A stretch of 51,807 nt of DNA from Candidatus Thorarchaeota archaeon (GTDB lineage Archaea > Asgardarchaeota > Thorarchaeia > Thorarchaeales > Thorarchaeaceae). The translations under genes were made by a program, and so were the position numbers. Location: NCBI GenBank assembly GCA_020355105.1, contig CP070658.1:1790688-1842494 (forward strand). Direction: 5' to 3'. Below are positions 8,976 through 45,969 of this stretch, piece after piece; within the stretch, counting starts at the first letter, position 1; every line of letters starts with the position of its first letter. Below the pieces are notes generated by a model that had not been told where the DNA came from, ran no database searches, and saw nothing but the letters and a program-made list of their open reading frames with translations.

Positions 8976-9036
8976 GATTCTTACGCGGCCTGTAGTTGAT
9001 TTATGTCTGTCGAGAGTCTTGGCGGGGTGCTTCGTT

Positions 9037-25629: not shown

Positions 25630-25716
25630 GTATTCTAAGGACTCCTAGTTCTGCATATAGGTAAGCCACATTGGGAAGTATTCACAAAAAGGGTTTTGTG
25701 TTCAGTCAGGACTGTA

Positions 25717-26028
25717 CTAACCCGTAAGTTCAATCTCGATATAGACAGAATCCGGAATCCGTACTCGCATAATCTGCCTAATCGCTCTCTCATCTGCATC
25801 AATATCGATAAGTCGTTTGTGAACTCGCATCTCCCACTTGTCCCAAGACTCGGAACCCTGACCGCATGGAGTCTTTCGTGTGGGAATGACCATTCTTCTT
25901 GTAGGTAGAGGTATTGGACCAGACATACGGACTCCTGTCTTGCGGGTGATACGCTTGATCTGAGTACAGACACCATCAAGATGTTCGGTGCTTGTACTTG
26001 ACAGTCTAATCCGTGCTTTCTGAGTCAT
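25717..26028 (-). CDS. rps10: 30S ribosomal protein S10 (uS10)
   Basis: Contains [10 protein letters not shown]......LD.VC.QI, GPIPLPT, and R.I.I. The start is taken at the internal Met. Confidence 0.9.
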
Positions 26029-26168
26029 AGCCAAGTCCACTCCGTAGGCAGGCTGGACATCGCAACGGAATTAGATTCGGATAAAAAGGTTGTCTTATGT
26101 GTTGACCTGAGAAGATCTGACAACATCAAAGGCAATGTCCATAAGGCAGCACAATACAACGCGAATGA

Positions 26169-27012: not shown

Positions 27013-30000
27013 CTAACCAGCGGCGGCTGTGACGGAGAGGTATTCGGAGAAGTCATACAGCTTGACGTTCTCTGGCATCACCATGTCCTCTTCTAGGTAT
27101 TCCGCAGCAGTCAACACCCCGATTATTCGGGTTGACTTGCATGTTCTGCATGCCATTTCGTTGTGGATATGAAGCAGGGTATTCAGCTGTTGTTGGTTTG
27201 GGAATATGACATACGAAACATCATTGTTACACAGATCGAAGTATCCGTGATTCCGTTCGACTTCATTTCCCCGTCCGTTAAGATCCTTCTCCAGAGCGTC
27301 TATGACCGAATCCTTGAATTCTTTCAACATGGCAGAGTTCACAATCCAAAGCCCTTCATGCAGACTCACAAATCCAGGTTTCTCACCTACGCGCAGAGCT
27401 ATGAGGACCTCATCGGCCAGCAATTCTGTCAGTGCACGCGTCCCCTCGTCAACACCAAGTGGAGTTGAGCTCCCCTTGACAGACTGCATTGCAGTTGTTT
27501 CAATGAACTCCAACAAGATGTCCCATTCTATCTTGCCATCTGACAAATCCACGAAATCTTGAATCAGCTGAAACCACAGACGCATCTGAATAGCACGATT
27601 TGTCGCTGATCCGATATCATGCATCGCTCCAATCAAGCCTACCTGTTGAGTTTCAGAAACGTCATCATCGAGCTTCGCCTGTTCAGATAATGAGGCCGAT
27701 TCAGAACTCGAAGGTGTCCGGGGGAGCAGACCCTCAATCATCGCATCCAGTGAGCTCGGAAAGGCCGACACGACTGTCACCGTATCAAAGTCCTCCGAGC
27801 CACTCATAATCTCTCTTAGCTTCGCAGCTGCTACACTCCCCCTCACAATCAAGATAAGCTCAGCTACATTATTACCCAAACCTGTCATGTATTCACGAGT
27901 TTTGTCCAGCATTGATTCCATAGATGATGCTTTCACGTGTTCAGGTAGTATCAGAATCGCTTTGTCCTCAATCAGAATCCCAGACCCATCATCTATGTCT
28001 TCTTCCCGAGTGATTCCGAAAAGCTCCAGTCTTTCTATGATGTAGCCAGTAATTGCATCCTTTACTGCCTGCAGGCCTCGGCCTGGTAATGTGAACACAA
28101 AACCTCCGGGAACTAGGGAAAGGGCCTCTCTATCAACAGTTCCCAAGGATACCAAATCTCGAATGACCTCATGGATGTCTTCTTCCTCCATTCTTGTATC
28201 AATAGACCCAAGAAGCTTTTGTATCTCTGTCTGAGTGGCCAAGTTCCTTGATGCAAGAAACGCTACGACATGCGATCCCAACTCTCCCAATCTATCAAAC
28301 ACGGCACCTGCAGGCTCTTCCAAATCTGTTTCTTCTGATACAACAATAGCTGTATCTTCGTAGTGCGTTCGTTCCGTCAAGTCAAGTGACTCTCTACTCA
28401 GTACCTTCTCGTGTGACTCTGCAATAAAGGGCCAAGTAGCTAGCTCAAAGGTTTCAATGCCAGGCATGACGATGAGTGCTCTCCCACGCTTCATTGTTCT
28501 CAGATACTTCTCCTGACCACCGTCCAGGGACATGAATCTTGCACCCACAATGCTATCATATGGGAGACGAAATGTCACCTTTGTAGCAGTGTTCGCAAGT
28601 ATGTTGGAGGAAACATTGGGTCTTGTTGAAACAACGATGACCCCCTGTCCGGTTGCTCTCTGAAGCATAACCATAGACTCACCTGTAGTCACATCTGCGG
28701 CTGAATGTCTAGCATAGCTCTCTGGTACAAGATTGCTGGCTTCTTCGAGTACAACCACATGATGGAGACCGGGTCTGATGCCTCTTTGGAGTGCATAGTC
28801 GAAGATACGTTTTGCAATTAGGTTGTACAACAGTCTAGCGGCCTCCATGCCGCCAGTTCTTGCTACGTACTGAAGATCAAGAATCACACGTTTGTCCATC
28901 AACTCGGAGATTCTCACTGCATTAGGCCCACCACCGAGTATCGAACCTAGTGGTTCCCGTGAGAGTATCTCCAGACGATTCGTTAATGCATCCCGAGTCA
29001 TCCCTCCAATTCGATCGTTGCCTGCCAATTCGGAGATTGCCTCAAGGAGACTCTGAACCGAGCGTCCTTTCTCCTGCCTCTCTGCAACTCTGAGAACCGC
29101 CTCCCGCAGGAGCCTTTCCATTGCCGGGGATAATTCCGAGGCGGGTCCTCTCTCAGTAAGTACTTCTCTTAGTATCGTGAAGGTCGTATGAGCGTGCCTC
29201 TCAAGAGAGTCAACCTCAGAATCCATGAAGTCTATCACAAACGACGAATCGATTCCAGGTCGTAGTACAAGTATCTCTTCATCACATTCGTCCAAGAGGT
29301 CCACATAATCGGACCCTTTGATATCAAAGACCCACCAAGGCGTTTTCGACTTTCTACTCAATTCCGCCATAAGGTGTTTGACGAGAGTCGTCTTTCCAGT
29401 ACCTGTTGCTCCAAGGACAGCTACATGTTCTCGCAACCATTCCGTCCTGAGCCCGACGATGTTCAAACGTCGACCACCAAAGACGGCCTGACCGATTCTC
29501 AATTCATTGTCTACGAATTCCTTGGCAGGTACTGGGAAGTCAGGAATCTGAGAAGCAGCTATCACTGGCAACTGCTGGACAGGTGTATTGACAAAGGCCA
29601 CTAACCTACTAACATGAGTTCTCTGTCGTGTGATGTGCCGACGCAGAAGCATTCTCAAGGCAGTCTTCCTTCCAATTGCCTTTCTCTTCAAACGGATGTT
29701 GTCATCATCGCCCCATATTGAGTGAACAAGTCCAACAATCCGTTCCTGAATCTCTCGCATGCGTACTGAGGTATCAGACTTCATCAAGATGTGGACAGTC
29801 GTGTCAAACCAACCGGCACTGCTTCGAATCTCTTCATAATGCTGTACAAGTTTCCTTTTCTTAGACTGATCAGCCAGCGAGTCTTCTTTCCGTTTCTCTC
29901 TCTCACGAATCGTGCTCCACTGCCTCTCCATTCTCCTCTGTTCTCTTCCTGGTCTAGCTCTTGAGAAGACACAGGAGAAGACCACGTCACATCCTTGTTT

Positions 30001-30786
30001 CAAGGCTGTTGAGATGAATGTACCCACTTGAGAACTCTCTGCCAAGGGTAGGACACGCGGCTCTCCCGTGAGCATCATCAAGCCGTTTCTATCCGCTTCA
30101 AAAGAAAGGCCAGAATCACTATCGAACTCGGCATCAATCAGTCCCAGTGAGGCCTCTCTAAGCTCATCACCTTTGAGTTGATGTAGTTCAATATTGCTCA
30201 AGGAGGCCAAGAGAATTGCCTCCGTCCGAGTAGCTTCTCTCCTCAACAACTCACCAATCTCATCAATCGCCCTACCTGATGCAGTAATGAAGATGCGCAG
30301 ATAGGGCTCACCATTCAAGACCCCCGCCTCGTAAGTCATATTCACGCGCCCATCCATTCCGGTACGCAGTGCCAGCAAGAAGCTCGTGTCGTATTCAGGA
30401 CGTTCATTCTCTCCTGTACGGACGGAGCCCGGGACAGAAGTGATGTCCAGGCAGCATACCGCAACCACATGCTGGTGCAGGCGCAGCACGAGTAGGTCAT
30501 TGACAATCTCCATTAGAGTCTGTTCTGATAGCAGCTTCCGTGTCAGCACAAGACAACCCATAGACAGAGGCATTCCACAGACAAAGACCTCCACCAGAAA
30601 CTTGGACGGAATCGGCACAGAATCCACCAAGCCAGCCAGAGGGAGTATATACACAAGAAGGAGATAGAGTGCACAGCACACAACTCCCAGAATCCAAGTC
30701 AATTCTATCCCACGCCATAGTCTTGGATGCATCTCCCAATGAGCTGCATCTCTCGTGTCTTCCTTGTGCAGCCTCTCACTAGACAT
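27013..30786 (-). CDS. Membrane-anchored FtsK/HerA/VirB4-superfamily ATPase (DUF87-like core) with large N- and C-terminal extensions
   Basis: Two N-terminal hydrophobic helices; Walker A VLGATGTGKTT; Walker B HHVVVLEEASNL; VIVVSTRPN...ANT.TKV.FRL as in HerA/DUF87. The ~470-aa C-terminal extension includes a wHTH-like stretch. Confidence 0.75.
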   Translation of the reverse strand: MSSERLHKEDTRDAAHWEMHPRLWRGIELTWILGVVCCALYLLLVYILPLAGLVDSVPIPSKFLVEVFVCGMPLSMGCLVLTRKLLSEQTLMEIVNDLLVLRLHQHVVAVCCLDITSVPGSVRTGENERPEYDTSFLLALRTGMDGRVNMTYEAGVLNGEPYLRIFITASGRAIDEIGELLRREATRTEAILLASLSNIELHQLKGDELREASLGLIDAEFDSDSGLSFEADRNGLMMLTGEPRVLPLAESSQVGTFISTALKQGCDVVFSCVFSRARPGREQRRMERQWSTIREREKRKEDSLADQSKKRKLVQHYEEIRSSAGWFDTTVHILMKSDTSVRMREIQERIVGLVHSIWGDDDNIRLKRKAIGRKTALRMLLRRHITRQRTHVSRLVAFVNTPVQQLPVIAASQIPDFPVPAKEFVDNELRIGQAVFGGRRLNIVGLRTEWLREHVAVLGATGTGKTTLVKHLMAELSRKSKTPWWVFDIKGSDYVDLLDECDEEILVLRPGIDSSFVIDFMDSEVDSLERHAHTTFTILREVLTERGPASELSPAMERLLREAVLRVAERQEKGRSVQSLLEAISELAGNDRIGGMTRDALTNRLEILSREPLGSILGGGPNAVRISELMDKRVILDLQYVARTGGMEAARLLYNLIAKRIFDYALQRGIRPGLHHVVVLEEASNLVPESYARHSAADVTTGESMVMLQRATGQGVIVVSTRPNVSSNILANTATKVTFRLPYDSIVGARFMSLDGGQEKYLRTMKRGRALIVMPGIETFELATWPFIAESHEKVLSRESLDLTERTHYEDTAIVVSEETDLEEPAGAVFDRLGELGSHVVAFLASRNLATQTEIQKLLGSIDTRMEEEDIHEVIRDLVSLGTVDREALSLVPGGFVFTLPGRGLQAVKDAITGYIIERLELFGITREEDIDDGSGILIEDKAILILPEHVKASSMESMLDKTREYMTGLGNNVAELILIVRGSVAAAKLREIMSGSEDFDTVTVVSAFPSSLDAMIEGLLPRTPSSSESASLSEQAKLDDDVSETQQVGLIGAMHDIGSATNRAIQMRLWFQLIQDFVDLSDGKIEWDILLEFIETTAMQSVKGSSTPLGVDEGTRALTELLADEVLIALRVGEKPGFVSLHEGLWIVNSAMLKEFKDSVIDALEKDLNGRGNEVERNHGYFDLCNNDVSYVIFPNQQQLNTLLHIHNEMACRTCKSTRIIGVLTAAEYLEEDMVMPENVKLYDFSEYLSVTAAAG

Positions 30787-31042
30787 TCATTATCACCATA
30801 TCCGAGGGCAAGGCACGAAGCATTTCCGCTCGATTATACGTCTAGCTACTCGTATTCCTTGTTGACATATGAACTCCCCCCGATATCCATCAATGCCCAA
30901 ACTGACTAGAAATAGCCTCCTCCATCGGTAGGAGATTAAAAACCAATGAGTGGACTCATGAACAGATCAGAAACCTGTTCTTACCGCGCCGTGAGTCCAC
31001 AATCTGATAATAACGGTTCATGAAACCCGCGAAATCATTGAG

Positions 31043-33016
31043 GTGTTGCCCCTGAGGAGGCTTACTCTAGCTGTAATTCTTGCAATTACGTTGTCAATCA
31101 TCATCTCACTGGCAGATGCAGAGAATGCCGTTGCACAGGAGGATTCTATCGTACTAAGAGGAGGCCTAGTACCTATCAATGCAAGACTCCTTCAGAATGG
31201 GTCCTACGGCTATCCTGTGAGTGAGCAGCGTCTGGACTTCTATGATTGTCTGCTGAACTCGTTCATAGGCTTCTCATTTACAGACAGCGATGGCTACGCC
31301 TTGATATACTGGAACCTCACTTTCGACCACCCACTTGGTCCTACTCTGCTCAATGTGACCTTCGAAGGCAACGATACGCTTTCTCTTGCTCCATCCTGCC
31401 AATGGACAACCGTGACGGTTGTTTCGGGTACGCACATAGACCTAGAACACACTCAACAAGCCTACCACCCTGGAGACCAAATCTCATTCTTGGTTGAACT
31501 CTCCGATGATCAAAGTGAAGCTATTCCGAATGCATCGATAGCTGTCTATCATGATGATATTCTACTTGCCGAAGATTACACAAATGAAACAGGTCAAGTC
31601 ACATTCAACCTAGGCTGTAACACATCTTGGTGTTCCTTGGGCAACAACGAAATCAGAGTGGTCTATGAACCAGCTACGTCAAGATATCACAATAAATCTG
31701 AGCACTCCATTCTGGTTGAAGTACAACAGATTCTGACATCAATTGAACTGGAGGATATGAATGGGACCCAGTTTCAGCTAGACGAGTTTCTATGGCTGAA
31801 GTTGAATGTGAGTGCCGACGGCGAGGGTCTTCCTAACGCCAACCTGAGTGTCCTTTTGGACGGATACCTCATTTCGAGTACCACAACTGACCCATTTGGA
31901 GTTACTGAGCATCTAATGCACATTGATCACTTGTTTGGATTGGGTCCACATAGAGTAGGAATAGAGTATGGTGGCACAGATCGTCATACGGCCGCTCATC
32001 TTGAAGTAGACATCGTGGTGACAAGCCCGGCCACGATATCTATAATGCTACCGGACTACACAATCTTTGGAGATGAATCTCAGATACAGTTGGGGATTCA
32101 TGATTCACTTGGTAGACCGATTCCAGGAGTTCATGTCACAATCCATGATGAATCCACAAATGAAACAATGGACATTCCTGTACCCCTGGGCCACACAAGC
32201 ACTGAATTCCAACATGTCTTCACAGGTCCAACCGGTATCAGAGGTCTATTGACTACAGTATCAGGGAATCCTTACCTTACAAATACAACCCAGTTATTCT
32301 CGGTGACTGTTTGGCTCAAGCCAACAATCTCGATGATCGAAACCAACATTCTCGGTTATGCGTCCCCTGGACAAAGGCTCTCATTTCGTGCCCAACTGAA
32401 CTCGAGTGGAACCAGCCTTCCAGACCGACCTGTCGATGCCCGGATAAACGAAACAGTCTTACCATCTCAAATCACTGATTCATACGGGTTCGCGAACGTA
32501 ACACTGTTCGCTCCCGAAGCCGAAGGACGATACGTCCTGGTCCTAAAGGTCAATGGCAGTTCCGTTTCGTATGAGCTTTCAGCAGTTCTTGAATATGCAC
32601 TCGTTGTGAGCAGAGTGATGCCTGTCCAAGTTGACCTGACATACTACATCATTAGCCCGGAACTCAAAGAGATTCGGGTTTATCTCATGATAAGATGTTT
32701 GAATGGCACACCATTGGATGGAGTCACACTAAACTACGAATGGCTGGACATCAGCACATCCGCAATCGCCATACAATCCGGTCTAGCCGAACTCATTCTC
32801 CCCATGCCCCCAAGTGCTGGTTTCTATAGACTTCACCATTACACAGACGGAACTCAACATCTTCATCCATCTTCGGGACATTCTCTTATTGCAATATCTG
32901 AAGCAGATGTTCAAGCGGCACAAGGCATTGGAATACTTGGTCTGGTGCTGACTCTCTGTGTTTCAGTCAGTCTTGTCGGCATTCCAGCACTATATCGGAA
33001 ACATCTAATTAGCTAG
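31043..33016 (+). CDS. Secreted, C-terminally membrane-anchored surface protein with repeated beta-rich (Ig-like) modules and many N-x-S/T sequons
   Basis: Signal-like N-terminus LTLAVILAITLSIIISLADA, repeated ...TD..G.. modules, and a C-terminal TM helix followed by a basic tail (GILGLVLTLCVSVSLVGIPALYRKH). Confidence 0.65.
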   Translation: MLPLRRLTLAVILAITLSIIISLADAENAVAQEDSIVLRGGLVPINARLLQNGSYGYPVSEQRLDFYDCLLNSFIGFSFTDSDGYALIYWNLTFDHPLGPTLLNVTFEGNDTLSLAPSCQWTTVTVVSGTHIDLEHTQQAYHPGDQISFLVELSDDQSEAIPNASIAVYHDDILLAEDYTNETGQVTFNLGCNTSWCSLGNNEIRVVYEPATSRYHNKSEHSILVEVQQILTSIELEDMNGTQFQLDEFLWLKLNVSADGEGLPNANLSVLLDGYLISSTTTDPFGVTEHLMHIDHLFGLGPHRVGIEYGGTDRHTAAHLEVDIVVTSPATISIMLPDYTIFGDESQIQLGIHDSLGRPIPGVHVTIHDESTNETMDIPVPLGHTSTEFQHVFTGPTGIRGLLTTVSGNPYLTNTTQLFSVTVWLKPTISMIETNILGYASPGQRLSFRAQLNSSGTSLPDRPVDARINETVLPSQITDSYGFANVTLFAPEAEGRYVLVLKVNGSSVSYELSAVLEYALVVSRVMPVQVDLTYYIISPELKEIRVYLMIRCLNGTPLDGVTLNYEWLDISTSAIAIQSGLAELILPMPPSAGFYRLHHYTDGTQHLHPSSGHSLIAISEADVQAAQGIGILGLVLTLCVSVSLVGIPALYRKHLIS

Positions 33017-33027
33017 AGAAATGAATC

Positions 33028-33138
33028 TGGTGCTCCGGCCGGGATTCGAACCCGGGTCGGGGGATCGAGAGTCCCCCATGCTGGGCCGGACTACACACGG
33101 CTACATCACGAGAATCTTCACGACGTATCTACCGGAGC
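33028..33138 (-). tRNA. tRNA, read as tRNA-Glu(CUC), with a ~33-nt insertion near positions 9/10 (putative non-canonical intron); CCA encoded
   Basis: Revcomp gives acceptor GCTCCGG/CCGGAGC, T-arm CCGGG-TTCGAAT-CCCGG, anticodon arm GGGGA-CTCTCGA-TCCCC and D-arm GTGT-AGTCCGGCCCA-GCAT. An extra GATACGTCGTGAAGATTCTCGTGATGTAGCCGT lies between the acceptor and the D-stem. Confidence 0.6.
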
Positions 33139-33242
33139 TAACGGGAACCAGTCCGGAGCGGGAGTGCTCCCTCAAGACCGCAAATAAGGCTTTCCCAAAG
33201 ACGGCCTCTCTGGGGCAGTTTACTGGTCATAATCGAATGGCA

Positions 33243-33443
33243 CTATGGAAAAAGACTGGTGAAACTACTCCAACTGTCCTCCAGCAGCTGCAGAAGACTT
33301 CCTATGATGTCTTGTGCCCACCCAGTAGCCTGAAGGATAACTGCGATGACTATCGATACAGTGACCACTGCGAGACCCAAGAGGAGACTCTCCTCCACCA
33401 AAGGGCCACCTGACTCATCTGCGATGAGGTCTCTCTCGTTCAT
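33243..33443 (-). CDS. Small pilin-like / VirB2- or Flp-like hydrophobic protein candidate
   Basis: 66 aa with a charged leader, then GG-PLVEE and a ~22-residue hydrophobic helix. A Glu sits at about +5 of a possible G|G cleavage site. The gene lies directly downstream of the secretion ATPase. Confidence 0.4.
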   Translation of the reverse strand: MNERDLIADESGGPLVEESLLLGLAVVTVSIVIAVILQATGWAQDIIGSLLQLLEDSWSSFTSLFP

Positions 33444-33512
33444 TGACAGTTACACCTGAACTGACATCCCCGAAACCGTATTTTAAGTGCCCCAAAAAGC
33501 TGCGACAGGAAT

Positions 33513-35210
33513 CTAGGTCCCCAAGGATTGCATTGGATGGCCTTCTCCCCATAAGCGGTCACTCAAAGAAGGATTCGACCCTGTAGATGACGAGCTCTTC
33601 TCATGCTCCAGACACGTTAGGATTGTTTCGAAGGCAGGAACATGACTTTCAAGTCCCATCCGATGTGCATGGAACATGAACGCACCATCCTGCGCCCATT
33701 TCACGGATTCAGGATTCCGCCAATCGTATAGTGTATTGAGACCAGAGAACATAAGGAACCCATCGACAACCTCTCTGCGAATCTCAACAATCTGATTCAC
33801 TCGCCGATATGACTTACCGGGTACCGGTCTTTCCATTGTGACAATGAGATCTAGCAGAGCCACATTCGTCTTCTCTATCCCGTGTCCCGAAGTCCATCGA
33901 GCCACGAGACTTGCTGCAGAATCACTATGACACGTCTGCAGTACCTTAAGTCCGGCTGCAATAGCTTGGAAGAGTGCTCTGCTGTGTTCAGCTGTCTGTA
34001 TCTCACCGAGAACAAGATAGTCGGGGGATCGATGAAGGCTCTTCACTATCTCTGAGGTCTTGTCAAACCTGGTGCTGATCTCATCAACAGGGTCGACCCG
34101 AATTCGAACTTGATGGTGATTGGTCAAGACTCTACTCTCAATCGCATCCTCGATGTATATTTTCCTCCACATTGATGGCGCACTCATATCCAGAGCGTTC
34201 AGCAAGGTCGTCTTTCCTGTGCCTGGACCTCCTGTTATGGTTATATTGAATCTGGAACCGACAGCCAATGTCAAGGCCGCGGCAGCCTTCAGGCTAAGGG
34301 TTTTGTTTAGCACCAAGTCCATAATCGAGAATGGAGATTCTTTTGCTCGTCGAATCTCCAGATTAACACCGTCGGGACTTAGTGGAGGCATGCTGATAGC
34401 TAGACGTAAATCTATGTCGTAGAGTCGAAGATTAGTCTTGAGTGAAGGATTTCTTCTGTCCAGATGTAGATTGCTTTCAGCTCTTACTAGGGTGGCCAGA
34501 CTTGCGACGTCGTCTTGGTCCAGGACAAGATTAGAAGAGCATCTCCCGAAATGTTGATGGTCAAAATAGACTGGGACTCCAGGTCGATCTACGTAGACCT
34601 CCTCCACTCCATCATCCAACAAGATTGGAAGAAACGGTCCTATCACAGATGTCCGACCAGCTACAGTATCAGCTATTCTTCCTCGTGTAGTATCGCTTAT
34701 TTCTGGCAATATCTGCTCGATTCTTGCCGAAACACACTCAGACACATGCTGAAGTCTGTCTGATAGCTCCATTCTGACGCTCGGCATGTCTTCTGTGAGC
34801 TTCTGAAGATCATCACTAAGCCTGTCTAGCAGACCAAATTCAAGGGGGCTTCTTACCAAGGGGTGAGTTCTATGGAGGATGCTGCTTTCACCAGTCCTGT
34901 CAAAGAAAAGAGAGAGATAGGGACCAATAGTATAGACATCTAGTAGATTGAAACGAGAATCAAGCAGCTGAGCATAGTCATCAATGAAGACTGTTTCCCA
35001 ATCGCCCCCCTTCCATGGCGGCCTAATCGGAACCTGTCCCTCAAGACCCCCCACATGAACCAAGTTCTTCTCTGGCTCTAGTATCACCGCTTTGGATGAA
35101 TCATCATTCATGAAAGAAACAAGCCTAGAACATGTGGACAAAGAGGAGTCTAAACACTTCTTGCACCTTTCTTCCGGACATCTGAATACAACCACACCAC
35201 ATTTCGACAT
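33513..35210 (-). CDS. Type II/IV secretion-family ATPase (VirB11/PilB/ArlI/TadA-like)
   Basis: Contains LDDGVEEVYVDRPG.PVY, Walker A GGPGTGKTT, IYIEDAIE, RSPDYLVLGEIQ..E and the His-box TCHS. There is an N-terminal Cys cluster, CPEERCKKC. Confidence 0.8.
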   Translation of the reverse strand: MSKCGVVVFRCPEERCKKCLDSSLSTCSRLVSFMNDDSSKAVILEPEKNLVHVGGLEGQVPIRPPWKGGDWETVFIDDYAQLLDSRFNLLDVYTIGPYLSLFFDRTGESSILHRTHPLVRSPLEFGLLDRLSDDLQKLTEDMPSVRMELSDRLQHVSECVSARIEQILPEISDTTRGRIADTVAGRTSVIGPFLPILLDDGVEEVYVDRPGVPVYFDHQHFGRCSSNLVLDQDDVASLATLVRAESNLHLDRRNPSLKTNLRLYDIDLRLAISMPPLSPDGVNLEIRRAKESPFSIMDLVLNKTLSLKAAAALTLAVGSRFNITITGGPGTGKTTLLNALDMSAPSMWRKIYIEDAIESRVLTNHHQVRIRVDPVDEISTRFDKTSEIVKSLHRSPDYLVLGEIQTAEHSRALFQAIAAGLKVLQTCHSDSAASLVARWTSGHGIEKTNVALLDLIVTMERPVPGKSYRRVNQIVEIRREVVDGFLMFSGLNTLYDWRNPESVKWAQDGAFMFHAHRMGLESHVPAFETILTCLEHEKSSSSTGSNPSLSDRLWGEGHPMQSLGT

Positions 35211-35264
35211 TTTCTCTCACAACTCAAACAGAATGACACATTGCAAATCGGTCAAGAACCGTGC

Positions 35265-36305
35265 CTAGGTATGCTCAGTGAGCACCACAATCTCCTTCTT
35301 CATCATCCCAAAGTGATCACGGATACTGTACTCTGCTACCTTGGTCGCGTTGGACGTGAGTTTCTGAGTGAGCACAGAGCGTCTTCCGTGTTCATCTGCA
35401 ATCAATCGGTCACTAGCATAAGCCGCAGAAACTGTGAATATGAATGGATTTCGACCACCCCTTCTCGAAGCCGGTATGGTTCCAAGAATCTCAAGCATCT
35501 TGTTTCTTAGTGCGTTCTCATAGGTTCTCAAGTCCCAACCACGAGCCCGTATCTTTCTGACGACTTTGTCACTATTCATCAACATCGAGAGAACTCTTGG
35601 CACATAATCCTCCGGACGACGAATCTGAGGAGCAATCCCTGTCAGTGATTTGAGCTTCAATGCTTCTCTGACTATAGCTCTGACATTCACTCGATGACCA
35701 CACTTCTCGAATGTGCTAGCTATCTCATCCAACGTTATCGGTGCACCATCCTTATACTCGCGAACAGCCATAAGCAAACATACTGCAATGAGTAGGATGT
35801 TGTTCGTAATCTTAGTGGACGCCTCCGTGACTATCTTCTTGTAGAGGTATGCAGTACGGTCACGCACTTGTTCACTCAGCATTAACAGCTTCGAAACATG
35901 ATTGAGTGTTCGGAGAGCCCTGTATTTTGCCTCGTTCCTACCTATCCTTACTCGTGTACTGTAGACTACTTTTAGACGCTTGAATCTCTTTTGCGATCTC
36001 GCTGATAGAGTCTGACCCTGCGCATCTTGAAAGTACTTCTCTTTATGAAAACCAATGTAGCTTCCAAGTCCATCTACAATGTGCATCCGATTACCCAAGG
36101 AAACATAGACAGTTGCATCAGGCTTGTCACTGTGCCGTTCCTCACCCATTTGATAAGTGGGCAGGACATACTCTCTGGAAATGACCAGACCGCACTCCGC
36201 ACAGACTATGTACCCTTGGTTCACCACTAGCAGTCCTGAACAGTCAGGACAAGACCACGATGAGCTCTGAATAGTCTCGAATGTTTCATCAATCAAAGAC
36301 CACAC
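35265..36305 (-). CDS. tfb: Transcription initiation factor IIB (TFB) family protein, divergent paralog
   Basis: N-terminal zinc ribbon CPDCSG...CAECG followed by two cyclin-like repeats. The B-reader/linker region is atypical and longer than usual. Confidence 0.75.
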   Translation of the reverse strand: MWSLIDETFETIQSSSWSCPDCSGLLVVNQGYIVCAECGLVISREYVLPTYQMGEERHSDKPDATVYVSLGNRMHIVDGLGSYIGFHKEKYFQDAQGQTLSARSQKRFKRLKVVYSTRVRIGRNEAKYRALRTLNHVSKLLMLSEQVRDRTAYLYKKIVTEASTKITNNILLIAVCLLMAVREYKDGAPITLDEIASTFEKCGHRVNVRAIVREALKLKSLTGIAPQIRRPEDYVPRVLSMLMNSDKVVRKIRARGWDLRTYENALRNKMLEILGTIPASRRGGRNPFIFTVSAAYASDRLIADEHGRRSVLTQKLTSNATKVAEYSIRDHFGMMKKEIVVLTEHT

Positions 36306-36511
36306 CCAAAAAGAACAGGCACATTACCGCTAACTAGATTTCAGGCAGATGCCAGTACATTCCCTAGGAAACAATGTTCGTTGAAATGGATTCTTGATAT
36401 CTCACAGTCGACGATTCTGGCCCCGACTGACAGAAAGAGGGGTCACCGTAACTATTCGGTGACTAACACGCGAGAGAATCGACCTCACATTCTAAGGTTA
36501 CGATTTTAAGG

Positions 36512-37513
36512 ATGAGGTGGAGGAAACAGACTGATACTACCATGAACAAATACGCTATTGTTCTCATTATCCTTGCCTGCGTGACGTCTATGGTACGATT
36601 CGGCCACGTCTATCCAGATAGCTATGCCTATCTCAGTTATATCGACTATTTCGATGGCATCGGAAGTTTCGAAGACGTTTCTACTCCGTTCGCATTGAGA
36701 CCTGCAATGCCCGTGGTAGTGTCACTGCTAAATGGACTACTGGACTCTTTTCTGATACTCTCCATTCTGAACTTGGGTTTCGTGTGCCTAATCAGTCTTG
36801 GACTGTTTAGGTATGTGAAGAACTACCACTTAGATGAAAGGACGGCCTTTGTCGCAGCAGCCATTTGCACCGTGTCATTCCCAGTTGCTTACTATGGTGC
36901 TGTACCTCTGGTAGACGCACTCGCCATTCTCATAATGCTGGTCGTTGTGATAGGACAGATCGAAGGGAAGGGTGATTGGTTTGCAATGACCTTCCTTCTT
37001 CTAGGAGTTATTGTGAAGGAAGTGGTTCTATTCATAGGGCTGTACTATGTGCTGAGGGAGATGGAGGAGTCGAGGGCAGAATCTGACCTAAAGACCGCCT
37101 TCTTGGTAGGAGTCAAGAAACTTTGGATACTAATACCAGCTTCTATACTCCACCTGACTCTCAGGTTTCTAATATTCGGTGGGCTGGCAAATTCACTTCA
37201 TTTCCACCTCGGCATCTTTGAGTCATCGCTGAGAATGATTCAAGTGGCAGGAGGAATCGGAATAACGTTCGTTCTGCCGATGATAATCCTCCTGATTACA
37301 ATCAGGAGAGAGAAATGCCAATCATGGGGAATAGCAAAGAGAGACGCTCTGTTAGGATTCATATCACTTCTCCCCTTGGCGTTTCTCGGTCTGTTCTTCG
37401 CCTATTTCGATGCACGATTCATATGGCCTCTGTATCTTCCACTGGTACCAATAATCGGCTGCTCAATCAAAATCCTGACTGGTCAGACTAGTCCGGATGG
37501 ACCAATCATATGA
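36512..37513 (+). CDS. Polytopic membrane protein (about 9 TM helices), possibly a GT-C-type glycosyltransferase
   Basis: Hydrophobicity pattern, with an acidic/aromatic first loop (YPDSYAYLSYIDYFD). The assignment is weak. Confidence 0.45.
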   Translation: MRWRKQTDTTMNKYAIVLIILACVTSMVRFGHVYPDSYAYLSYIDYFDGIGSFEDVSTPFALRPAMPVVVSLLNGLLDSFLILSILNLGFVCLISLGLFRYVKNYHLDERTAFVAAAICTVSFPVAYYGAVPLVDALAILIMLVVVIGQIEGKGDWFAMTFLLLGVIVKEVVLFIGLYYVLREMEESRAESDLKTAFLVGVKKLWILIPASILHLTLRFLIFGGLANSLHFHLGIFESSLRMIQVAGGIGITFVLPMIILLITIRREKCQSWGIAKRDALLGFISLLPLAFLGLFFAYFDARFIWPLYLPLVPIIGCSIKILTGQTSPDGPII

Positions 37514-37889
37514 TTGCTAGGAGAAACTTGTCCGAGTCGAACGTATTCCTCTGAGATGCGGCCGGCTTGCTGATTGTAAGAACCAGTCTTAGGCCTCCAA
37601 TTGCACCAACGACCTCCAGACCTGTATCCTCCTTGATGCGGAATACCTTTCCTTCCGCATACAGCTTCGCATTAGGACCTCTTGCAATCGGCTTAGAGTC
37701 TATCACTATGGTGACTTCATCCTTGGGATTCATTGTGTCGCAGAGAACTTCTGGAAGCTCCAAAACCACTCTGGCCCCCTCCTCCTTGCTGACCATGTTC
37801 AAGACCTTCAGTTTCCTTGTTTCAGTGTCCTCAATGGACTCAATTATGGCATTCTTCAGTCTGACCACCATAGTATTCAGACGCTCCAA
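37506..37889 (-). CDS. RNA polymerase subunit Rpo8 (RpoG / Rpb8 homolog) candidate
   Basis: VVLELPEVL....KDEVTIVIDS parallels LDINVELFPV..QDSLTVTIASS of yeast Rpb8. GAIGGLRLVL......F.SDKFLLAI parallels SFGGLLMRLEG...L...NAYLLI. Confidence 0.5.
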   Translation of the reverse strand: MERLNTMVVRLKNAIIESIEDTETRKLKVLNMVSKEEGARVVLELPEVLCDTMNPKDEVTIVIDSKPIARGPNAKLYAEGKVFRIKEDTGLEVVGAIGGLRLVLTISKPAASQRNTFDSDKFLLAII

Positions 37890-37988
37890 TTCCTCAGAAG
37901 CAGAGGGCAGTCAGTCTTGAATTAAAGTTGTCGCTGTAATCATGTGGCGTTTTTTAGGGAATACAAGCACCAAGTTGCGGTGGGCCAT

Positions 37989-40040
37989 TTGGAGAAAAGA
38001 CCACTGATTGCACTCATAGCCTCGGTTTCTGTCCTGCTATGCCTAGTCACACCAGTATCCGCATACTACTTCGAGTTTGACTACTTCGAAACGGACAAGC
38101 TTGTCTACGAGGTCGGAGAAACAATCAATATGGTCGCCAGGTTGATAGCAGATTTCAGCCCTCAAGGATGGTGCTACGTTTCCTTTGGTGTCACAACCGA
38201 TTTAGGGCCGGTGTTTGGCAACAGCTACTTCATTCCTTCATCCACCGAAGCGCGACTCTTCAACTCATCCTACACAATAGTACCTGAAGACACCTCTCCA
38301 GGTTCTGGAGGCACAGAGGCATACGTGATATTCACCGTTGAAATCTATGACTCATACTCACAGGGGGACGGTGATACAGTCCAGATAAACATCACAAGAG
38401 GATCTGTACAAGTGAGTTCGCTTTCACCACTAAGCTTAGAATTCGATGATAATACGACCCTAGTCTTCAAGGTCACCTCTGTACACAATGATATCATTAC
38501 TTACGCAGATTCACCCGTAACAGTTACACTACTCGACTCCTTCATGGCTCAACTGTTCCAAGAACACACCACAACCTCTTCAGATGGTATGGTTGACCTC
38601 AATTGGAACTCTTCAATGGCATCTCCTGGCGACTACACTCTAACGCTATCGAGCAATGGAACTGAGGATTTCCTTCCGTTCTCACAGTCGTTTCCAGTCG
38701 CGATAACACAACCTTCTTCCAATCTGACAGTGGTTAGCGCGCCAGTGTCGGTATATTGTCAGACTCCTGACGGGGCTCAAGTGGAATCCATTGACATTTC
38801 TGCAGAGCAGCGAAACGAGGAAGGAGGACCCATAACCGATAGCACAATCCTGTGGGAAACCACCTTCTCGGCAGGTACCATGACTCACATCGGAAGCGGG
38901 GTCTATCACGCATCTATCTCATTTGAAACACAGCCTGGACTTTCTCACGTCAACCTCACTGCAAACAACCCTCTCTACATGACCGAGTATGAAAGCATTG
39001 GAATCCAAGTCCTACCTCGGCCTCTACAGATTACATCGACAGAGTCGGATTGGGACGCACAACGGCGAGGCAATGTATCCATTGCTGTCGATGTGAGTTC
39101 CATGTGGTTGCTCAACCAGTCTATTCCGATATTGCTCACAGACTCACAAGGACAACTCGACACGTACACTTCAGTCAATGCCAACACACAATCTGAGATT
39201 CTCCTCAACATCAAGCAAAGCGCATCTCTGGGTCCACACACATTTACAATTGAGATCGAAGACACGTCGTTTCAGCTTACGGATGCTTCCAGTTTCGAGG
39301 TGTTTGTATACGGCACAATCAATGCCCAAATTGAAATGGCTGTAGCGTACTATGCAGAAGAATTCAGCATAGCCCTGAATATGACAGATGACAATAGTCA
39401 ATCCGTGAGCATGACCAATCTCAGTCTATGGGTTGATGATTTCACGTTTCCCGCAGCCTATATCGAGAATGTAGGCACCCTATCTCCTGTGACCGTTCTT
39501 CTACCAAGCTGGGTTTCTCCAGGCTTACATGAAATGGTATTGGATGTAGAGAGTCCTTGGTGTGGAAGAACCAACGTATCAACGCAAGTAGTGGTCTGGA
39601 TGCGCACCAGCATTCTTGTCGTTGTAGGATATGACCATGAATTACCACAGATGCTAGGAACCAACCAACTTCCGCCGAGTGTTCAGACAGAACCAGTGAT
39701 TCTCTCAACGATTTCCGCCGGTTCTATCATCCGTCCTCCTCCGATCTTAGTCAACGATACAACATCCACTGAACCACCCACCGCCCGCGAAACCTCTCGA
39801 GAGAGCTGGCCCAGACTTAGTTCCGGTACCAACAACGATTCGACGGACCTCGCGAACTCTGCCAGTTCGGCATCAGGGAACGGCCAGAGCGTTCTCAACC
39901 TGAGAGACCTGATATCTACAGAGCTGTTTGTCATGACTTCCTCAACAGACCGGGACGTACACCCATACGAAACAACTCCCCAATCTGCTGATTTAGGTCC
40001 AGACAACACTACATCAGTCAGGAGCTCTCGTTCATTCTGA
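37989..40040 (+). CDS. Secreted repeat-rich surface protein 2; the 3' end is unreliable
   Basis: A TTG start gives the signal peptide MEKRPLIALIASVSVLLCLVTPVSA|YY. The protein has beta-rich modules and many N-x-S/T sequons. The last 358 nt are antisense to korA, and there is no C-terminal anchor. Confidence 0.55.
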   Translation: MEKRPLIALIASVSVLLCLVTPVSAYYFEFDYFETDKLVYEVGETINMVARLIADFSPQGWCYVSFGVTTDLGPVFGNSYFIPSSTEARLFNSSYTIVPEDTSPGSGGTEAYVIFTVEIYDSYSQGDGDTVQINITRGSVQVSSLSPLSLEFDDNTTLVFKVTSVHNDIITYADSPVTVTLLDSFMAQLFQEHTTTSSDGMVDLNWNSSMASPGDYTLTLSSNGTEDFLPFSQSFPVAITQPSSNLTVVSAPVSVYCQTPDGAQVESIDISAEQRNEEGGPITDSTILWETTFSAGTMTHIGSGVYHASISFETQPGLSHVNLTANNPLYMTEYESIGIQVLPRPLQITSTESDWDAQRRGNVSIAVDVSSMWLLNQSIPILLTDSQGQLDTYTSVNANTQSEILLNIKQSASLGPHTFTIEIEDTSFQLTDASSFEVFVYGTINAQIEMAVAYYAEEFSIALNMTDDNSQSVSMTNLSLWVDDFTFPAAYIENVGTLSPVTVLLPSWVSPGLHEMVLDVESPWCGRTNVSTQVVVWMRTSILVVVGYDHELPQMLGTNQLPPSVQTEPVILSTISAGSIIRPPPILVNDTTSTEPPTARETSRESWPRLSSGTNNDSTDLANSASSASGNGQSVLNLRDLISTELFVMTSSTDRDVHPYETTPQSADLGPDNTTSVRSSRSF

Positions 40041-40813
40041 ACCTTTCCAGTGATTCTACGAATCAGATTGTTGTGAGTTTCAGAATCAGCGGTTCTCCTG
40101 AAACCCAACTCGTCATGCGTGGACCCAGTGACTAGCAAGTCATGTCCATCGCCGAACCGAGGCATTATTGACACTCCATTGTCAATCCCGCCATAAGGTG
40201 GCTCTCCGCTTCTAGCGAAACGACGCTTCACCCCGACATCCCGGTTAGAGTCTATCATGACCCTCTCACGGGAGTGTGCCACGATTTCGTCTGATAACAA
40301 TATCACTGGATGTCTAAGCTTTTCTGATAAGAGGAATGCACGTATTGTGAGCTCATAGGTTTCTTGGGCCGAATAAGGTGCCAGCACTATACTCTCATGA
40401 TCCCCATGCGTTCCCCATCCGGCCTGCATGAAATCGCCCTGAGCTGCCTTTGTGGCTTGTCCAGTGCTAGGACCCGCTCTTTGCACGTTGGCAATTACAC
40501 AGGGGGCTTCAGTCATTATTGCATATCCGATGTTCTCCTGCATAAGGCTAAAGCCTGGCCCCGACGTTGCTGTCATTGAGAGTGCCCCTCCCCACGAAGC
40601 ACCGATGACCGCAGAGATCGCTGCTATCTCATCTTCCATCTGTAGATAGGTTCCTCCAACCCGCGGAAGTCGAGATGCCATAATCTCTGCAATCTCCGAG
40701 GCTGGTGTGATTGGATATCCAGCGAAGAATGTGCAACCTGCCGCAATTGCAGCCTCTGCACACGCCTGATTTCCCTGCCAAAAGTCTATTCTTGTGCCTT
40801 CAGGGGACATCAC
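39683..40813 (-). CDS. korA: 2-oxoacid:ferredoxin oxidoreductase alpha subunit (KorA/PorA/VorA type)
   Basis: Contains GNQACAEAAIAAGC.FFAGYPITPASEI, YLQMEDEIAAI, and GASWGG...MTATSGPGFSLM. The conserved C-terminus reads LRTLWPFP....EF......LVPELSLGQL. Confidence 0.85.
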   Translation of the reverse strand: MMSPEGTRIDFWQGNQACAEAAIAAGCTFFAGYPITPASEIAEIMASRLPRVGGTYLQMEDEIAAISAVIGASWGGALSMTATSGPGFSLMQENIGYAIMTEAPCVIANVQRAGPSTGQATKAAQGDFMQAGWGTHGDHESIVLAPYSAQETYELTIRAFLLSEKLRHPVILLSDEIVAHSRERVMIDSNRDVGVKRRFARSGEPPYGGIDNGVSIMPRFGDGHDLLVTGSTHDELGFRRTADSETHNNLIRRITGKVQNERELLTDVVLSGPKSADWGVVSYGCTSRSVEEVMTNSSVDIRSLRLRTLWPFPDAELAEFARSVESLLVPELSLGQLSREVSRAVGGSVDVVSLTKIGGGRMIEPAEIVERITGSV

Positions 40814-40944: not shown

Positions 40945-41021
40945 GCGACTGTAGTCTAGCTTGGTTAGGACGGAAGCCTCCCAAGCTTCCAACCCGGGTT
41001 CAAATCCCGGCAGTCGCACCA
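40945..41021 (+). tRNA. tRNA-Gly(CCC), CCA encoded
   Basis: GCGACTG-TA-GTCT-AGCTTGGTTA-GGAC-G-GAAGC-CTCCCAA-GCTTC-CAAC-CCGGG-TTCAAAT-CCCGG-CAGTCGC-A-CCA folds as a canonical cloverleaf. Confidence 0.9.
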
Positions 41022-41243
41022 CGTCTTCAGTGAAACTTAAGGCTGAAGCTATGTCATACTTCAGCGGCGAGTGATGACTAACATGACCCCAATGAGTCCA
41101 ATAGGACGATGATATGGATCTTGAGTTAAGAACTCGCCACTATTACTTTCGGCAACCTCCCCTGCCAATGTACTTTTAATCGAACACTCCACATAACTCT
41201 TTTAAGGCTCATGGGACCAGATATCCTTGGGCTGTGATGACTC

Positions 41244-42440
41244 GTGACTCATGACTACATTGAAGATGAACTGAGTCGGCAAAGTGTATTCAAGTCTGAA
41301 CAGCTACTCTCCATAGACTATGTGCCCGAAAAGCTTCCGCATCGGGAATCGGAGCTGAAGGTCCTTGCGCAGAGCTTCAAGACACTCATTACATCTCCTG
41401 GCCGTACGAGTCAGAAGTTCATAATCGAGGGGCCCGTTGGGACCGGTAAGACTGCTGTCACTAAGCGCTTTGCAGACCAGATGATTCAAGCTGCTGAGCG
41501 GCGTGGCATAAGACTACATAAGCTCCACATCAATTGCCGTGTGAGTAAGAGCGCATACCTGGTCTACTTGAGAATACTCAAGGAGTTCAAGCCAAAGTTT
41601 CCTCGTCGAGGACACTCACCAGAAGAACTTCTTCAGATGGTCGTCGAAGTCTTGGACGAAGAAGACCGCTATCTTCTATTAATGCTGGATGAACTTGACT
41701 ACTTCATCCGTCAGCGGGGGGCCGACATACTCTATGATCTCACTAGACTCATGGACGACAGATTGAACGCCCCACAGCGTCTCTCAATAATTGGCATTGG
41801 ACGAAAGGTCTCTCTGAGCGAAGACATACTGGATTCAAGCACACTTAGCACACTTCAGCGCAACATACTTCGTTTCGAGCAGTACAGTTCCGAAGCACTC
41901 TATGACATTCTCAAAGAAAGGTCAGACATGGCATTTGAAGAGAACACGGTTATGGATGAAACACTCCAGCTGATTTGCGATATCGCTTCAGATCGAGGAG
42001 ACGCTCGTTACGCAATTGAACTTCTATGGAGAGCAGGAAAACAAGCTGACAGTATAAACTCCAGAAAGGTGATTCCAGACTACGCAAGAAAGGCCAAAGC
42101 TGACACTCATCCAGAGTTGAGAAAGGAGATATTCACCACCCTGCCGAAACAGAATAGCCTTCTTCTTCTAGCGGCCGCGCGCCAATTGAAGGAGAATCGA
42201 GGAGCCTACATCACAATGGGTGAACTGGAGGAGATGTACCAATCTGTATGCGAGGAGTACAATGAGGAACCACGAGCTCACACTCAGGTCTGGGAGTGGG
42301 TTCAGGACTTGAATTCTCATGGATTGGTTGACACAAAACGTTCAGGCGTCGGGCAGAGAGGCCAAACAACACTCATAGGGCTGTCCGATGTACCTGCGGA
42401 ATTGTTGGAGCACTACCTACTGGAGTTGCTCGGGAGATAG
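41244..42440 (+). CDS. orc1: Orc1/Cdc6 replication initiator
   Basis: Contains L..DYVPEKLPHRE.E, Walker A GPVGTGKTA, Walker B LLMLDELD, a sensor region with GDARYAIELL, and a C-terminal winged helix. Confidence 0.95.
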   Translation: MTHDYIEDELSRQSVFKSEQLLSIDYVPEKLPHRESELKVLAQSFKTLITSPGRTSQKFIIEGPVGTGKTAVTKRFADQMIQAAERRGIRLHKLHINCRVSKSAYLVYLRILKEFKPKFPRRGHSPEELLQMVVEVLDEEDRYLLLMLDELDYFIRQRGADILYDLTRLMDDRLNAPQRLSIIGIGRKVSLSEDILDSSTLSTLQRNILRFEQYSSEALYDILKERSDMAFEENTVMDETLQLICDIASDRGDARYAIELLWRAGKQADSINSRKVIPDYARKAKADTHPELRKEIFTTLPKQNSLLLLAAARQLKENRGAYITMGELEEMYQSVCEEYNEEPRAHTQVWEWVQDLNSHGLVDTKRSGVGQRGQTTLIGLSDVPAELLEHYLLELLGR

Positions 42441-42481
42441 GGGGTTTCTGACAATTACCAGCGACTCTGCAAACATATCGC

Positions 42482-42744
42482 GTGTTTCCATTGAGGAGAT
42501 ATTCTCGTCAAGAGGGAGAATCAAGATTCTGAAAGAGCTGGCCACCTCCAGTGAGTTGAACATATCAGAGCTCTGTAGGAGAGTTTCCTTGAACCATAGC
42601 TCAACCAAATCGCATCTTGAGGTGCTAATTGCATCAGGTCTCGTTGAAGAGAAGATGTTTGGAAGAATCAAGATCTATCGATATCGCATTGAAGACCATC
42701 GGGCTCGGGCACTCAGAAACCTGTTCGGCCTTTGGCAGTCATAA
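42482..42744 (+). CDS. ArsR-family winged-helix transcription regulator
   Basis: Contains IFSSRGRIKILKELA...LNISELCRRVSLNHSSTKSHLEVLIASGLVEE. A GTG start was chosen downstream of the orc1 stop. Confidence 0.6.
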
Positions 42745-42760
42745 CGGAGAGGTCGCGTGT

Positions 42761-45727: not shown

Positions 45728-45969
45728 TCTAGTTTCCGTCCCTTTTCGTGTATTTTGAGTCTACACCTTCAGTAGATGAATGCCACGTTTCTTGTAACCT
45801 TAATAGATTCTCCGGAGCACTCGCACAAGCAATGGATCAGAAATGGTTGTAAGTCCGTACATTCAACAATCTCAAGCCAAGGAGTCCCTGAATCGAAACG
45901 TGTATGACTCTCAGACAAAGAACAATGCCTTTATGGTTTCCTAGCCATCGGGAGAAGATAGTGTGAATA

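Follow-up and report, generated by a model that had tools for sequence, protein, structure and literature searches.

We analysed a stretch of 51,807 nucleotides from a Candidatus Thorarchaeota archaeon (contig CP070658.1; hereafter the window, whose positions are used throughout), in which a large membrane ATPase of the VirB4/HerA kind and an ATPase of the T2SSE family are encoded close to a pilin-like protein of 66 amino acids (aa), a paralogue of the transcription factor TFB and a surface protein with Ig-like repeats. An earlier note on this DNA had suggested that these genes may be a single translocation or cell-contact apparatus that resembled the Ups pilus and the Ced DNA importer fused into one locus. 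The calls of the individual components and their co-occurrence in relatives held up, but one apparatus was not supported by the synteny, by the neighbourhoods of homologues outside the clade, by the transcription units or by rate covariation. The reading that we favour, at about even confidence, is instead that the locus consists of two adjacent, separately conserved, uncharacterised membrane-associated units that are neighbours through frozen synteny. Unit A (33243-37871, minus strand) would comprise a Rpo8-like RNA polymerase subunit, an operon of the TFB paralogue and a T2SSE ATPase with a four-cysteine (4-Cys) motif, and the separately promoted 66-aa protein, and would represent the Asgard counterpart of 'subsystem 4D' of the Thermoproteales. 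Unit B (27013-33016) would be a divergent pair of the VirB4/HerA-like ATPase and the Ig-like, C-terminally anchored surface glycoprotein. The analysis establishes that the genes are real, which domains and folds they encode, how they are conserved and distributed and how they are divided into transcription units; substrates, the forming of a filament and any coupling of the two units are inferred.

Related loci (~70) were gathered via the large ATPase and via the T2SSE ATPase, and all window proteins were mapped onto them. The gene order was identical in ~50 loci of Thorarchaeota-type (Thor-type) genomes, that is, in every locus with enough flank, some of them redundant. It runs Orc1, POR-alpha, secreted protein, Rpo8, TFB-like protein, T2SSE ATPase, 66-aa protein, tRNA-Glu, Ig-like protein, 1257-aa ATPase, AA-kinase, S10 and GlmS. 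This block of 17 kb is perfectly syntenic, and S10, GlmS, AA-kinase, POR and Orc1 are fixed in it as firmly as the candidate genes, so that co-localisation within the Thor clade is uninformative about function. The neighbourhood comparison proposed in the earlier note thus returned the expected co-occurrence in ~50 related loci, but the housekeeping genes co-occurred equally; within-clade synteny by itself is unable to define a module in Thorarchaeota. Rate covariation across 22 non-redundant loci did not discriminate either, since the partial correlation between the large ATPase and the T2SSE ATPase (r = 0.43) was no higher than those of ATPase-housekeeping pairs (0.44 for the large ATPase with POR, 0.45 for the T2SSE ATPase with AA-kinase). 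The sole rearranged locus (L052; FWPU01007768.1, positions 1-9714) has the TFB-T2SSE pair alone inverted relative to the genes for the 66-aa protein, the Ig-like protein and the large ATPase, which suggests that this pair can move as one transcription unit. The remaining genes of the 51.8-kb window encode core functions (TFE, PAN, Trm5, NAC, AtpD, HypF, POR, Orc1/Cdc6, RFC, MCM, Hel308 and HDAC), indicating that the window belongs to the core Thorarchaeota chromosome and not to a mobile element. A mobile or conjugative origin of the locus was also rejected on a tblastn search against plasmids, which returned only generic bacterial DUF87 ATPase domains at ~25% identity, and on its housekeeping flanks.

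The distribution of the large-ATPase family was traced across the Asgard archaea. An exhaustive search of 1.84 billion representatives returned 1783 relatives. Full-length homologues, with 49-90% identity, were found in Thor-type genomes only. A second tier shares 23-33% identity over the N-domain and the ATPase domain, and its members are 700-1440 aa long and mostly carry 1-7 N-terminal transmembrane (TM) segments. Those with a lineage name are all from Asgard archaea (Baldr-, Hel-, Ran-, Hod-, Njord-, Loki-, Jord-, Odin- and Freyarchaeota and 'Asgardarchaeia'). In all 10 non-Thor loci inspected, the homologue had neither a T2SSE nor a TFB gene up to a distance of 10 kb. The neighbours at these loci were genes for primase/PCNA/GINS, Orc1, ribosomal proteins, RNA polymerase subunits and shikimate enzymes, together with traces of decaying synteny. 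Judged from these sequences, the large ATPase is a vertically inherited, chromosomal family of pan-Asgard range. A description of it was not found in the searchable literature, and the family is apparently an undescribed and apparently Asgard-restricted branch of the FtsK/HerA/VirB4 superfamily. If so, the conservation of such a membrane translocase among the archaea nearest to eukaryotes would be relevant to how these cells exchange DNA or form their surface and protrusions. Across the family, the predicted number of membrane segments is highly variable (0-7). In a Helarchaeota locus (L028, ~9347-10000, plus strand) the gene call seems to have missed ~250 aa of polytopic sequence at the N-terminus of the homologue, and in a Ranarchaeia locus (L027) a 79-aa protein with two TM segments (8058-8297, plus strand) is encoded directly upstream of the homologue.

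The transcription-unit layout also separates the two units. Separate conserved TATA-like boxes precede the genes for the 66-aa protein, the Rpo8-like subunit, the large ATPase and the Ig-like protein, and both an opposite-strand gene and a tRNA gene lie between the two ATPase genes. The region between the two divergent genes of Unit B (30787-31042) contains back-to-back promoter boxes, namely GGGGAGTTCATATG on the ATPase side (30866-30880, minus strand) and TAGGAGATTAAAAAC on the Ig-like side, both conserved in the 22 non-redundant Thor loci. The 66-aa gene has its own G-rich box followed by TTAAAA or TTATAA, and a GGTG Shine-Dalgarno-like motif. Comparison of upstream sequences showed a conserved TATA-like box, TTTAATT, for the Rpo8-like gene and no conserved promoter box in the 54-nucleotide (nt) gap between the TFB and T2SSE genes of the Thor loci. 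The TFB paralogue and the T2SSE ATPase are thus probably co-transcribed as a bicistron, which agrees with the inversion of the pair in the rearranged locus. The TFB paralogue starts with GTG, and ~30 nt before this codon (36306-36340) the motif CTGAAAyyyAGTTAGG was present in all Thor loci inspected, including L001-L019; this motif is not a canonical TFB-recognition or TATA element.

The large ATPase of Unit B (27013-30786, minus strand; Pfam DUF87/HerA, E-value 1.5e-15) is 1257 aa long. It begins with two hydrophobic TM helices (residues 32-50 and 63-81), which are followed by a pre-ATPase domain of ~330 aa and the DUF87 P-loop core, and it ends in a C-terminal extension of ~470 aa that is specific to the Thor proteins. 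The Walker A (GATGTGKT, 459-466) and Walker B (VVVLEEA, 677-683) motifs are invariant in the homologues. The earlier description of this protein as a two-helix membrane ATPase with an FtsK/HerA/VirB4 core was therefore correct in each of these features. The protein scored below the cut-offs of the following profiles. With NCBIfam it reached 34 bits for CedD (cut-off 600), 19 bits for VirB4_CagE (cut-off 643) and 15 bits for CedB (cut-off 700), and HerA was also far below its cut-off; with Pfam it scored 16.1 bits for FtsK_SpoIIIE (cut-off 24). The family profile matched only HerA proteins among the PDB sequences, at ~5e-4. An AF2 model covering residues 91-1257, with a predicted local distance difference test score (pLDDT) of 70, was then compared by Foldseek. 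The best match was TrwK/VirB4 of R388 (E-value 1.7e-17), with ~800 aligned columns in which the N-domain and the ATPase domain were both aligned, and the next were Sulfolobus HerA (SsoHerA, 5e-12) and TrwB/VirD4 (6e-10). The C-terminal 428 aa were modelled separately (pLDDT 78) and showed two helix-helix-helix-hairpin modules alternating with alpha/beta modules. For this part Foldseek returned nothing below an E-value of 1e-3, with weak winged-helix and nuclease-like similarities only.

The large ATPase therefore has its best fold match in VirB4/TrwK, with which it shares the pre-ATPase N-domain and the RecA-like domain. However, its Walker B motif is of the HerA type (LEEA), and genes for VirB6, VirB8 and VirB2 are missing. 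Its gene is, moreover, chromosomal, vertically inherited and solitary across Asgard archaea, and the Thor protein carries the 470-aa C-terminal extension. The N-terminal TM hairpin is presumably an analogue of a fused VirB3. The DUF87 P-loop core is also found in HerA-NurA and in the anti-phage HerA systems (SIR2-HerA and DUF4297-HerA). In contrast to these, the large ATPase is membrane-anchored, is 2.5 times longer than the ~500-aa soluble HerA and is a core gene across a phylum-level clade; its neighbours are AA-kinase and the Ig-like protein, and it is not flanked by genes for NurA, Mre11, Rad50, SIR2 or any other effector. The large ATPase may act as a hexameric membrane translocase. DNA would be its most likely substrate, because of the superfamily to which the ATPase belongs and because of the two winged-helix-like modules in the Thor tail.

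The 657-aa protein encoded divergently from the large ATPase (31043-33016, plus strand) is, as had been predicted, secreted, repeat-containing and anchored at its C-terminus: it has a signal-like N-terminus, a TM helix at residues 629-647 and 18 N-x-S/T sequons, and the Ig-like Pfam matches are sub-threshold. At the locus of the closest non-Thor homologue of the large ATPase (L030), a divergent gene likewise encodes a protein (647 aa) that has a signal peptide, is rich in sequons and is anchored at its C-terminus. It aligns with the Thor Ig-like protein at 32% identity over 172 aa (E-value 1e-16), and the flanking genes differ. Since this locus keeps the Ig-like protein in divergent orientation despite different flanks, the conserved pair is the large ATPase with the Ig-like protein, and not with the T2SSE ATPase. 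These comparisons make the Ig-like protein a probable partner of the large ATPase.

In Unit A, the ATPase (33513-35210, minus strand; 565 aa) belongs to the T2SSE family (Pfam, 3e-20) and is of the archaeal GspE/FlaI/CpaF-like kind. In the 15 homologues aligned, its motifs GGPGTGKTT, IEDAIE, GEIQ and TCHS are all unchanged, and the N-terminal 4-Cys motif (C11, C16, C19 and C27) is invariant across the Thor homologues. The closest PDB sequences were AfGspE from Archaeoglobus (2oap, 1e-26) and then FlaI and CpaF (~1e-16), whereas VirB11 followed at 1.7e-5. The earlier designation as VirB11/PilB-like is thus right as to the T2SSE family, but in sequence VirB11 is a far more distant match than AfGspE, FlaI and CpaF. 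The best NCBIfam match was the TadA family (1e-28), and every NCBIfam match stayed below its cut-off. Genomes and metagenomes were scanned for this family with family-specific peptide patterns, and the homologues among the matches listed were Thor-type (named Thorarchaeota, Promethearchaeota and Sifarchaeia).

The first gene of the operon (35265-36305, minus strand) encodes a divergent TFB/TFIIB paralogue of 346 aa (Pfam TFIIB 4e-6, Zn_Ribbon_TF 3e-4). A Zn ribbon is followed by a long conserved linker and the first cyclin repeat, and a degenerate second cyclin repeat is probably retained, for which the hhalign match was non-significant. The protein scored 63.6 bits for NCBIfam TFIIB (cut-off 384), is 65-97% identical across Thor genomes, and matched in the PDB only human TFIIB (E-value 9e-4) and no archaeal TFB. 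It also matches the PHROG family phrog_20431, of unknown function (E-value 7e-15), and such TFB-like proteins are therefore present in archaeal viruses as well. Upstream of it lies the gene of a 121-aa Rpo8/RpoG-like RNA polymerase subunit (37506-37871, minus strand), which is missing from the earlier note. Pfam RNA_pol_RpbG was matched by 7 of the 11 homologues, with a best E-value of 5.6e-6, and the alignment profile gave only chance matches in the PDB. All homologues are 121 aa long, and the true start is Met7 of the listed open reading frame (ORF) of 127 aa.

The 66-aa pilin-like protein (33243-33443, minus strand) was recognised as a gene from its alignment, its codon use and its own TATA-like promoter. 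It consists of a variable leader of 10-18 aa, a near-invariant (G/A)GPLVEESLLLG(L/I)AVVTVSIVIAVILQATGWAQD and an amphipathic C-terminal helix. The core of 33 residues is near-invariant, and the alignment has 36 invariant columns. Within the core, a class-III-signal-like (G/A)|GPLVE with Glu at +5 is followed by one TM helix. The 57 unique nucleotide sequences of the gene use every codon family at synonymous sites while the amino acids are fixed. With synonymous sites saturated and residues fixed in this way, the ORF is a genuine gene on which purifying selection is extreme; in the same genomes, ribosomal protein S10 is conserved to a comparable degree. Its conservation in relatives had been left open in the earlier note and was thereby established. 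All relatives among the matches listed were Thor-type (374/374), and one of them has the IMG name 'Flp pilus assemb...'. The N-terminus resembles a class III signal peptide. No Pfam family was matched, including Flp_Fap and Class_IIIsignal, and searching the PDB with the 66-aa profile gave only chance matches, with no CedA1, TedC, VirB2 or pilin chain. The predicted pilin-like protein is thus real, strongly selected and pilin-like at its N-terminus, but pilin profiles in Pfam and the PDB do not recognise it. A conservation like that of a ribosomal protein, and unlike that of any known pilin, hints at a structural role in the membrane.

Pfam scans of the window, which took in every ORF of 120 aa or more, found neither a T2SSF platform nor a prepilin peptidase, and no polytopic or platform gene adjoins the T2SSE ATPase in the ~50 related loci, as the earlier note had observed for the genes at hand; the minus-strand string of TFB paralogue, T2SSE ATPase and 66-aa protein, with its ATPase motifs, was likewise found as described there. 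On these features, Unit A would be derived from a type IV filament machine, in a reduced form that lacks the platform. Its ATPase, presumably hexameric like others of the T2SSE type, would probably act at the membrane on the class-III-signal-like 66-aa protein, and the TFB paralogue may provide dedicated transcriptional control or coupling.

A similar set of genes has been described in the Thermoproteales. There, the secretion ATPases of subclade 4D are Cys-rich and are encoded with an operonic TFIIB homologue, an adjacent RPB8 and a small membrane protein, without pilins, and a non-pilus, transcription-related role was suspected (Makarova, Koonin & Albers 2016, PMC4858521). The components are the ATPase arCOG05558, the membrane protein arCOG05557/13890 and the TFIIB homologue arCOG05559 (PMC4858521; bioRxiv 10.64898/2026.04.22.720090). 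A preprint of 2026 regards 4D as a repurposed remnant and finds type IV filament systems largely absent from Asgard archaea (bioRxiv 10.64898/2026.04.22.720090). Thor Unit A shares with 4D the Cys-rich N-terminus of the ATPase, the TFIIB homologue in the operon, the adjacent Rpo8 and a small dedicated membrane protein. Both are without an adhesin, a recognisable pilin set and a canonical TadC. On the other hand, the TFIIB homologue of 4D has a single cyclin repeat whereas the Thor paralogue probably keeps the second, and the lineage is Asgard and not TACK. Neither unit is a new kind of system, and Unit A is the Asgard version of the unexplained 4D association. The link between a secretion ATPase, a TFB paralogue and Rpo8, known earlier only from Pyrobaculum and Thermoproteus, recurs here in an Asgard class; if this holds up, it speaks for a functional connection or for one of great age.

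Several observations weigh against two independent units of these kinds. Inside Thorarchaeota the two units are never apart, and they are still adjacent in the rearranged locus. Their independence is seen from the side of the large ATPase only, as the searches with the T2SSE family covered the Thor-type matches listed. The non-Thor relatives of the large ATPase are without the Thor-specific C-terminal 470 aa and could be paralogues instead of orthologues. The promoters of the large ATPase and of the 66-aa gene share the layout of a G-rich box with a TATA-like element, and the pattern RGGGNNNTTHWWAWR matches only these two promoters in the window; having been derived from them, it is circular as evidence for a regulon and at most suggestive. 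As for the comparison with 4D, the Thor ATPase has 565 aa and keeps its C-terminal region, whereas the 4D ATPase has ~335-343 aa and is without that domain. As its membrane partner the Thor unit has the 66-aa protein, with one TM helix and a class-III-like motif, compared to 4-5 TM helices in 4D, and the likeness to 4D is one of described features. Finally, the 66-aa protein has no match to a pilin profile.

The alternative that survives best, which we nevertheless consider unlikely, is a single integrated apparatus. In it, both ATPases, the 66-aa protein and the Ig-like protein would form one machine for DNA or protein translocation or for cell contact, a fused analogue of Ups and Ced in which the TFB paralogue plays the part of TFB3. 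The comparison has its attractions. In Sulfolobales, the TFB paralogue TFB3 controls both the Ups type IV pilus, with its T2SSE-type UpsE and small pilins, and the Ced DNA importer, with its membrane-bound VirB4-like CedB and VirD4-like CedD. The fold of the large ATPase is closest to VirB4, and its profile matches to CedD and CedB, if weak, are in line with it. All five genes stand together wherever a Thor locus has enough flank, they are clustered even in the rearranged locus, and the large ATPase and the 66-aa protein share their promoter layout. However, S10, GlmS, AA-kinase and POR co-occur just as perfectly; the Sulfolobales systems are dispersed in the genome, whereas the Thor adjacency is indistinguishable from general synteny. 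None of the 10 non-Thor loci of the large ATPase has a T2SSE or TFB neighbour, the transcription units are separated by an opposite-strand gene and the tRNA, and the rates of the two ATPases covary no more than those of either with POR or AA-kinase (0.43 versus 0.44 and 0.45). The conserved block also lacks parts of the Sulfolobales systems, namely the UpsF platform, globular pilins, VirB2-like CedA1/A2 and any polytopic protein like CedA or VirB6. The T2SSE sequence is much nearer to AfGspE, FlaI and CpaF than to VirB11, and the profile of the 66-aa protein matched no CedA1, TedC, VirB2 or pilin in the PDB. A more ambitious form of this alternative takes the pan-Asgard ATPase as the motor of a native system for DNA exchange or envelope translocation, which in Thorarchaeota would act jointly with the platform-less T2SSE ATPase, the ultra-conserved mini-pilin and the TFB paralogue, like Ups, Ced and TFB3 combined; we rate it as distinctly improbable. 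If there were such a single apparatus, it would be a compact Ups+Ced+TFB3-like machine for cell contact and DNA transfer in the archaeal lineage closest to eukaryotes.

Two further alternatives, both of which we regard as quite unlikely, concern the nature of the units. According to the first, Unit A would be an ordinary archaeal type IV pilus of the Flp/Epd kind, with TadC and the peptidase encoded elsewhere and the TFB paralogue as a commonplace regulator, and the large ATPase would be unrelated to it. The intact motifs of the T2SSE ATPase and its nearest profiles and structures (TadA, CpaF, FlaI and AfGspE) fit well with this. So do the leader, the G|xxxxE motif in the form (G/A)|GPLVE, the hydrophobic helix and the Flp-like mature size of the 66-aa protein, as well as the Flp pilus name given to one relative in IMG. 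TFIIB homologues (arCOG01981) are, furthermore, the commonest regulators in archaeal type IV pilus loci, where pilins are often encoded apart from the ATPase and TadC. The ATPase and TadC themselves, however, are almost always adjacent in archaea, yet no polytopic gene accompanies the ATPase in the ~50 Thor loci. TadB/TadC, a TadV/EppA-type peptidase and minor pilins are all missing from the Thor locus. The 66-aa core is conserved like a ribosomal protein, far beyond what is typical of the fast-evolving pilins, and it has no pilin profile match. The 4-Cys N-terminus and the adjacency of Rpo8 match the non-pilus subsystem 4D, and the 2026 census reports type IV filament systems to be largely absent from Asgard archaea.

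According to the second, which has a similarly low standing, both units would be directed at the genome and neither would be a machine of the envelope. The T2SSE ATPase would take part in a transcription-related process together with the TFB paralogue and Rpo8, and the large ATPase, tethered to the membrane, would pump chromosomal DNA in segregation or division as FtsK does. The window is dense in genes for TFE, Orc1/Cdc6, RFC, MCM, Hel308 and Rpo8, and the non-Thor homologues lie beside primase/PCNA/GINS, Orc1, ribosomal and RNA polymerase genes. The TM helices, the motor and the C-terminal winged-helix-like modules of the large ATPase parallel those of FtsK, and a transcription-related role was suggested for 4D by Makarova et al. 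(2016). Membership of FtsK/SpoIIIE was not borne out, however, with the motor profile at 16 bits against a cut-off of 24 and every C-terminal fold match, including those resembling winged helix-turn-helix domains, above an E-value of 1e-3. The envelope is indicated both by the conserved pairing with the Ig-like surface protein and by the embedding of the 66-aa protein in the membrane, and an action of a T2SSE ATPase on transcription factors has no known mechanism.

Two established roles for the large ATPase were dismissed: a HerA-NurA repair helicase, as the protein is membrane-anchored, has 1257 aa and is encoded without NurA, Mre11 or Rad50 nearby, and an anti-phage HerA or MADS component, as the PADLOC matches to mad8 and HerA span the P-loop domain only, effector genes are missing and the gene is core and vertically inherited. 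Profiles and structure thus did not place it in another established role; such a placement would, by the earlier note, have counted against its proposal.

Between the two units lies a tRNA gene (33028-33138, minus strand), as called earlier. Rfam gave a partial match of 30.8 bits over model positions 10-63, and ARAGORN missed the gene in the unspliced locus. After in-silico removal of ~31-36 nt behind the acceptor stem (position 7-10), ARAGORN called a tRNA-Glu(CUC). The gene therefore carries a non-canonical intron of ~33 nt near positions 8-10. A tRNA gene stands at the equivalent place in L005, L016 and L019, and the orthologue in L016 appears intron-less, with a full-length Rfam match. This tRNA-Glu is a bystander gene.

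A polytopic membrane protein of 333 aa with ~9 TM helices is encoded between the Rpo8 and TFB genes on the opposite strand (36512-37513, plus strand). It was considered as a cryptic platform and rejected, as it had no Pfam match even at an E-value of 5 and was found by tblastn, out of the ~70 loci, only in L034 (85% identical), the nearest relative of this genome.

Some minor observations were made on the flanking genes. On the S10 side, two minus-strand ORFs overlap at 25635-26040, and the true gene of ribosomal protein S10 is the one at 25717-26040, which is 97% identical to that of L001. The ORF in the alternative frame (25635-25979) still gives tblastn matches because the underlying S10 gene is so conserved. 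On the Rpo8 side, the ORF of the 698-aa secreted protein (37944-40040, plus strand) overlaps the convergent POR-alpha gene (39683-40813, minus strand) by 358 nt, so that its low-complexity C-terminal tail is antisense to POR (39683-40040). This overlap recurs in several related loci, and the homologue in L003 is shorter (551 aa) and without overlap. Farther along, Orc1/Cdc6 (41244-42440), a tRNA-Gly, the large and small subunits of RFC, MCM and Hel308 are clustered at ~41000-47000, and the cumulative GC skew has its minimum at ~44-46 kb and then reverses. A replication origin may therefore lie at ~41000-47000.

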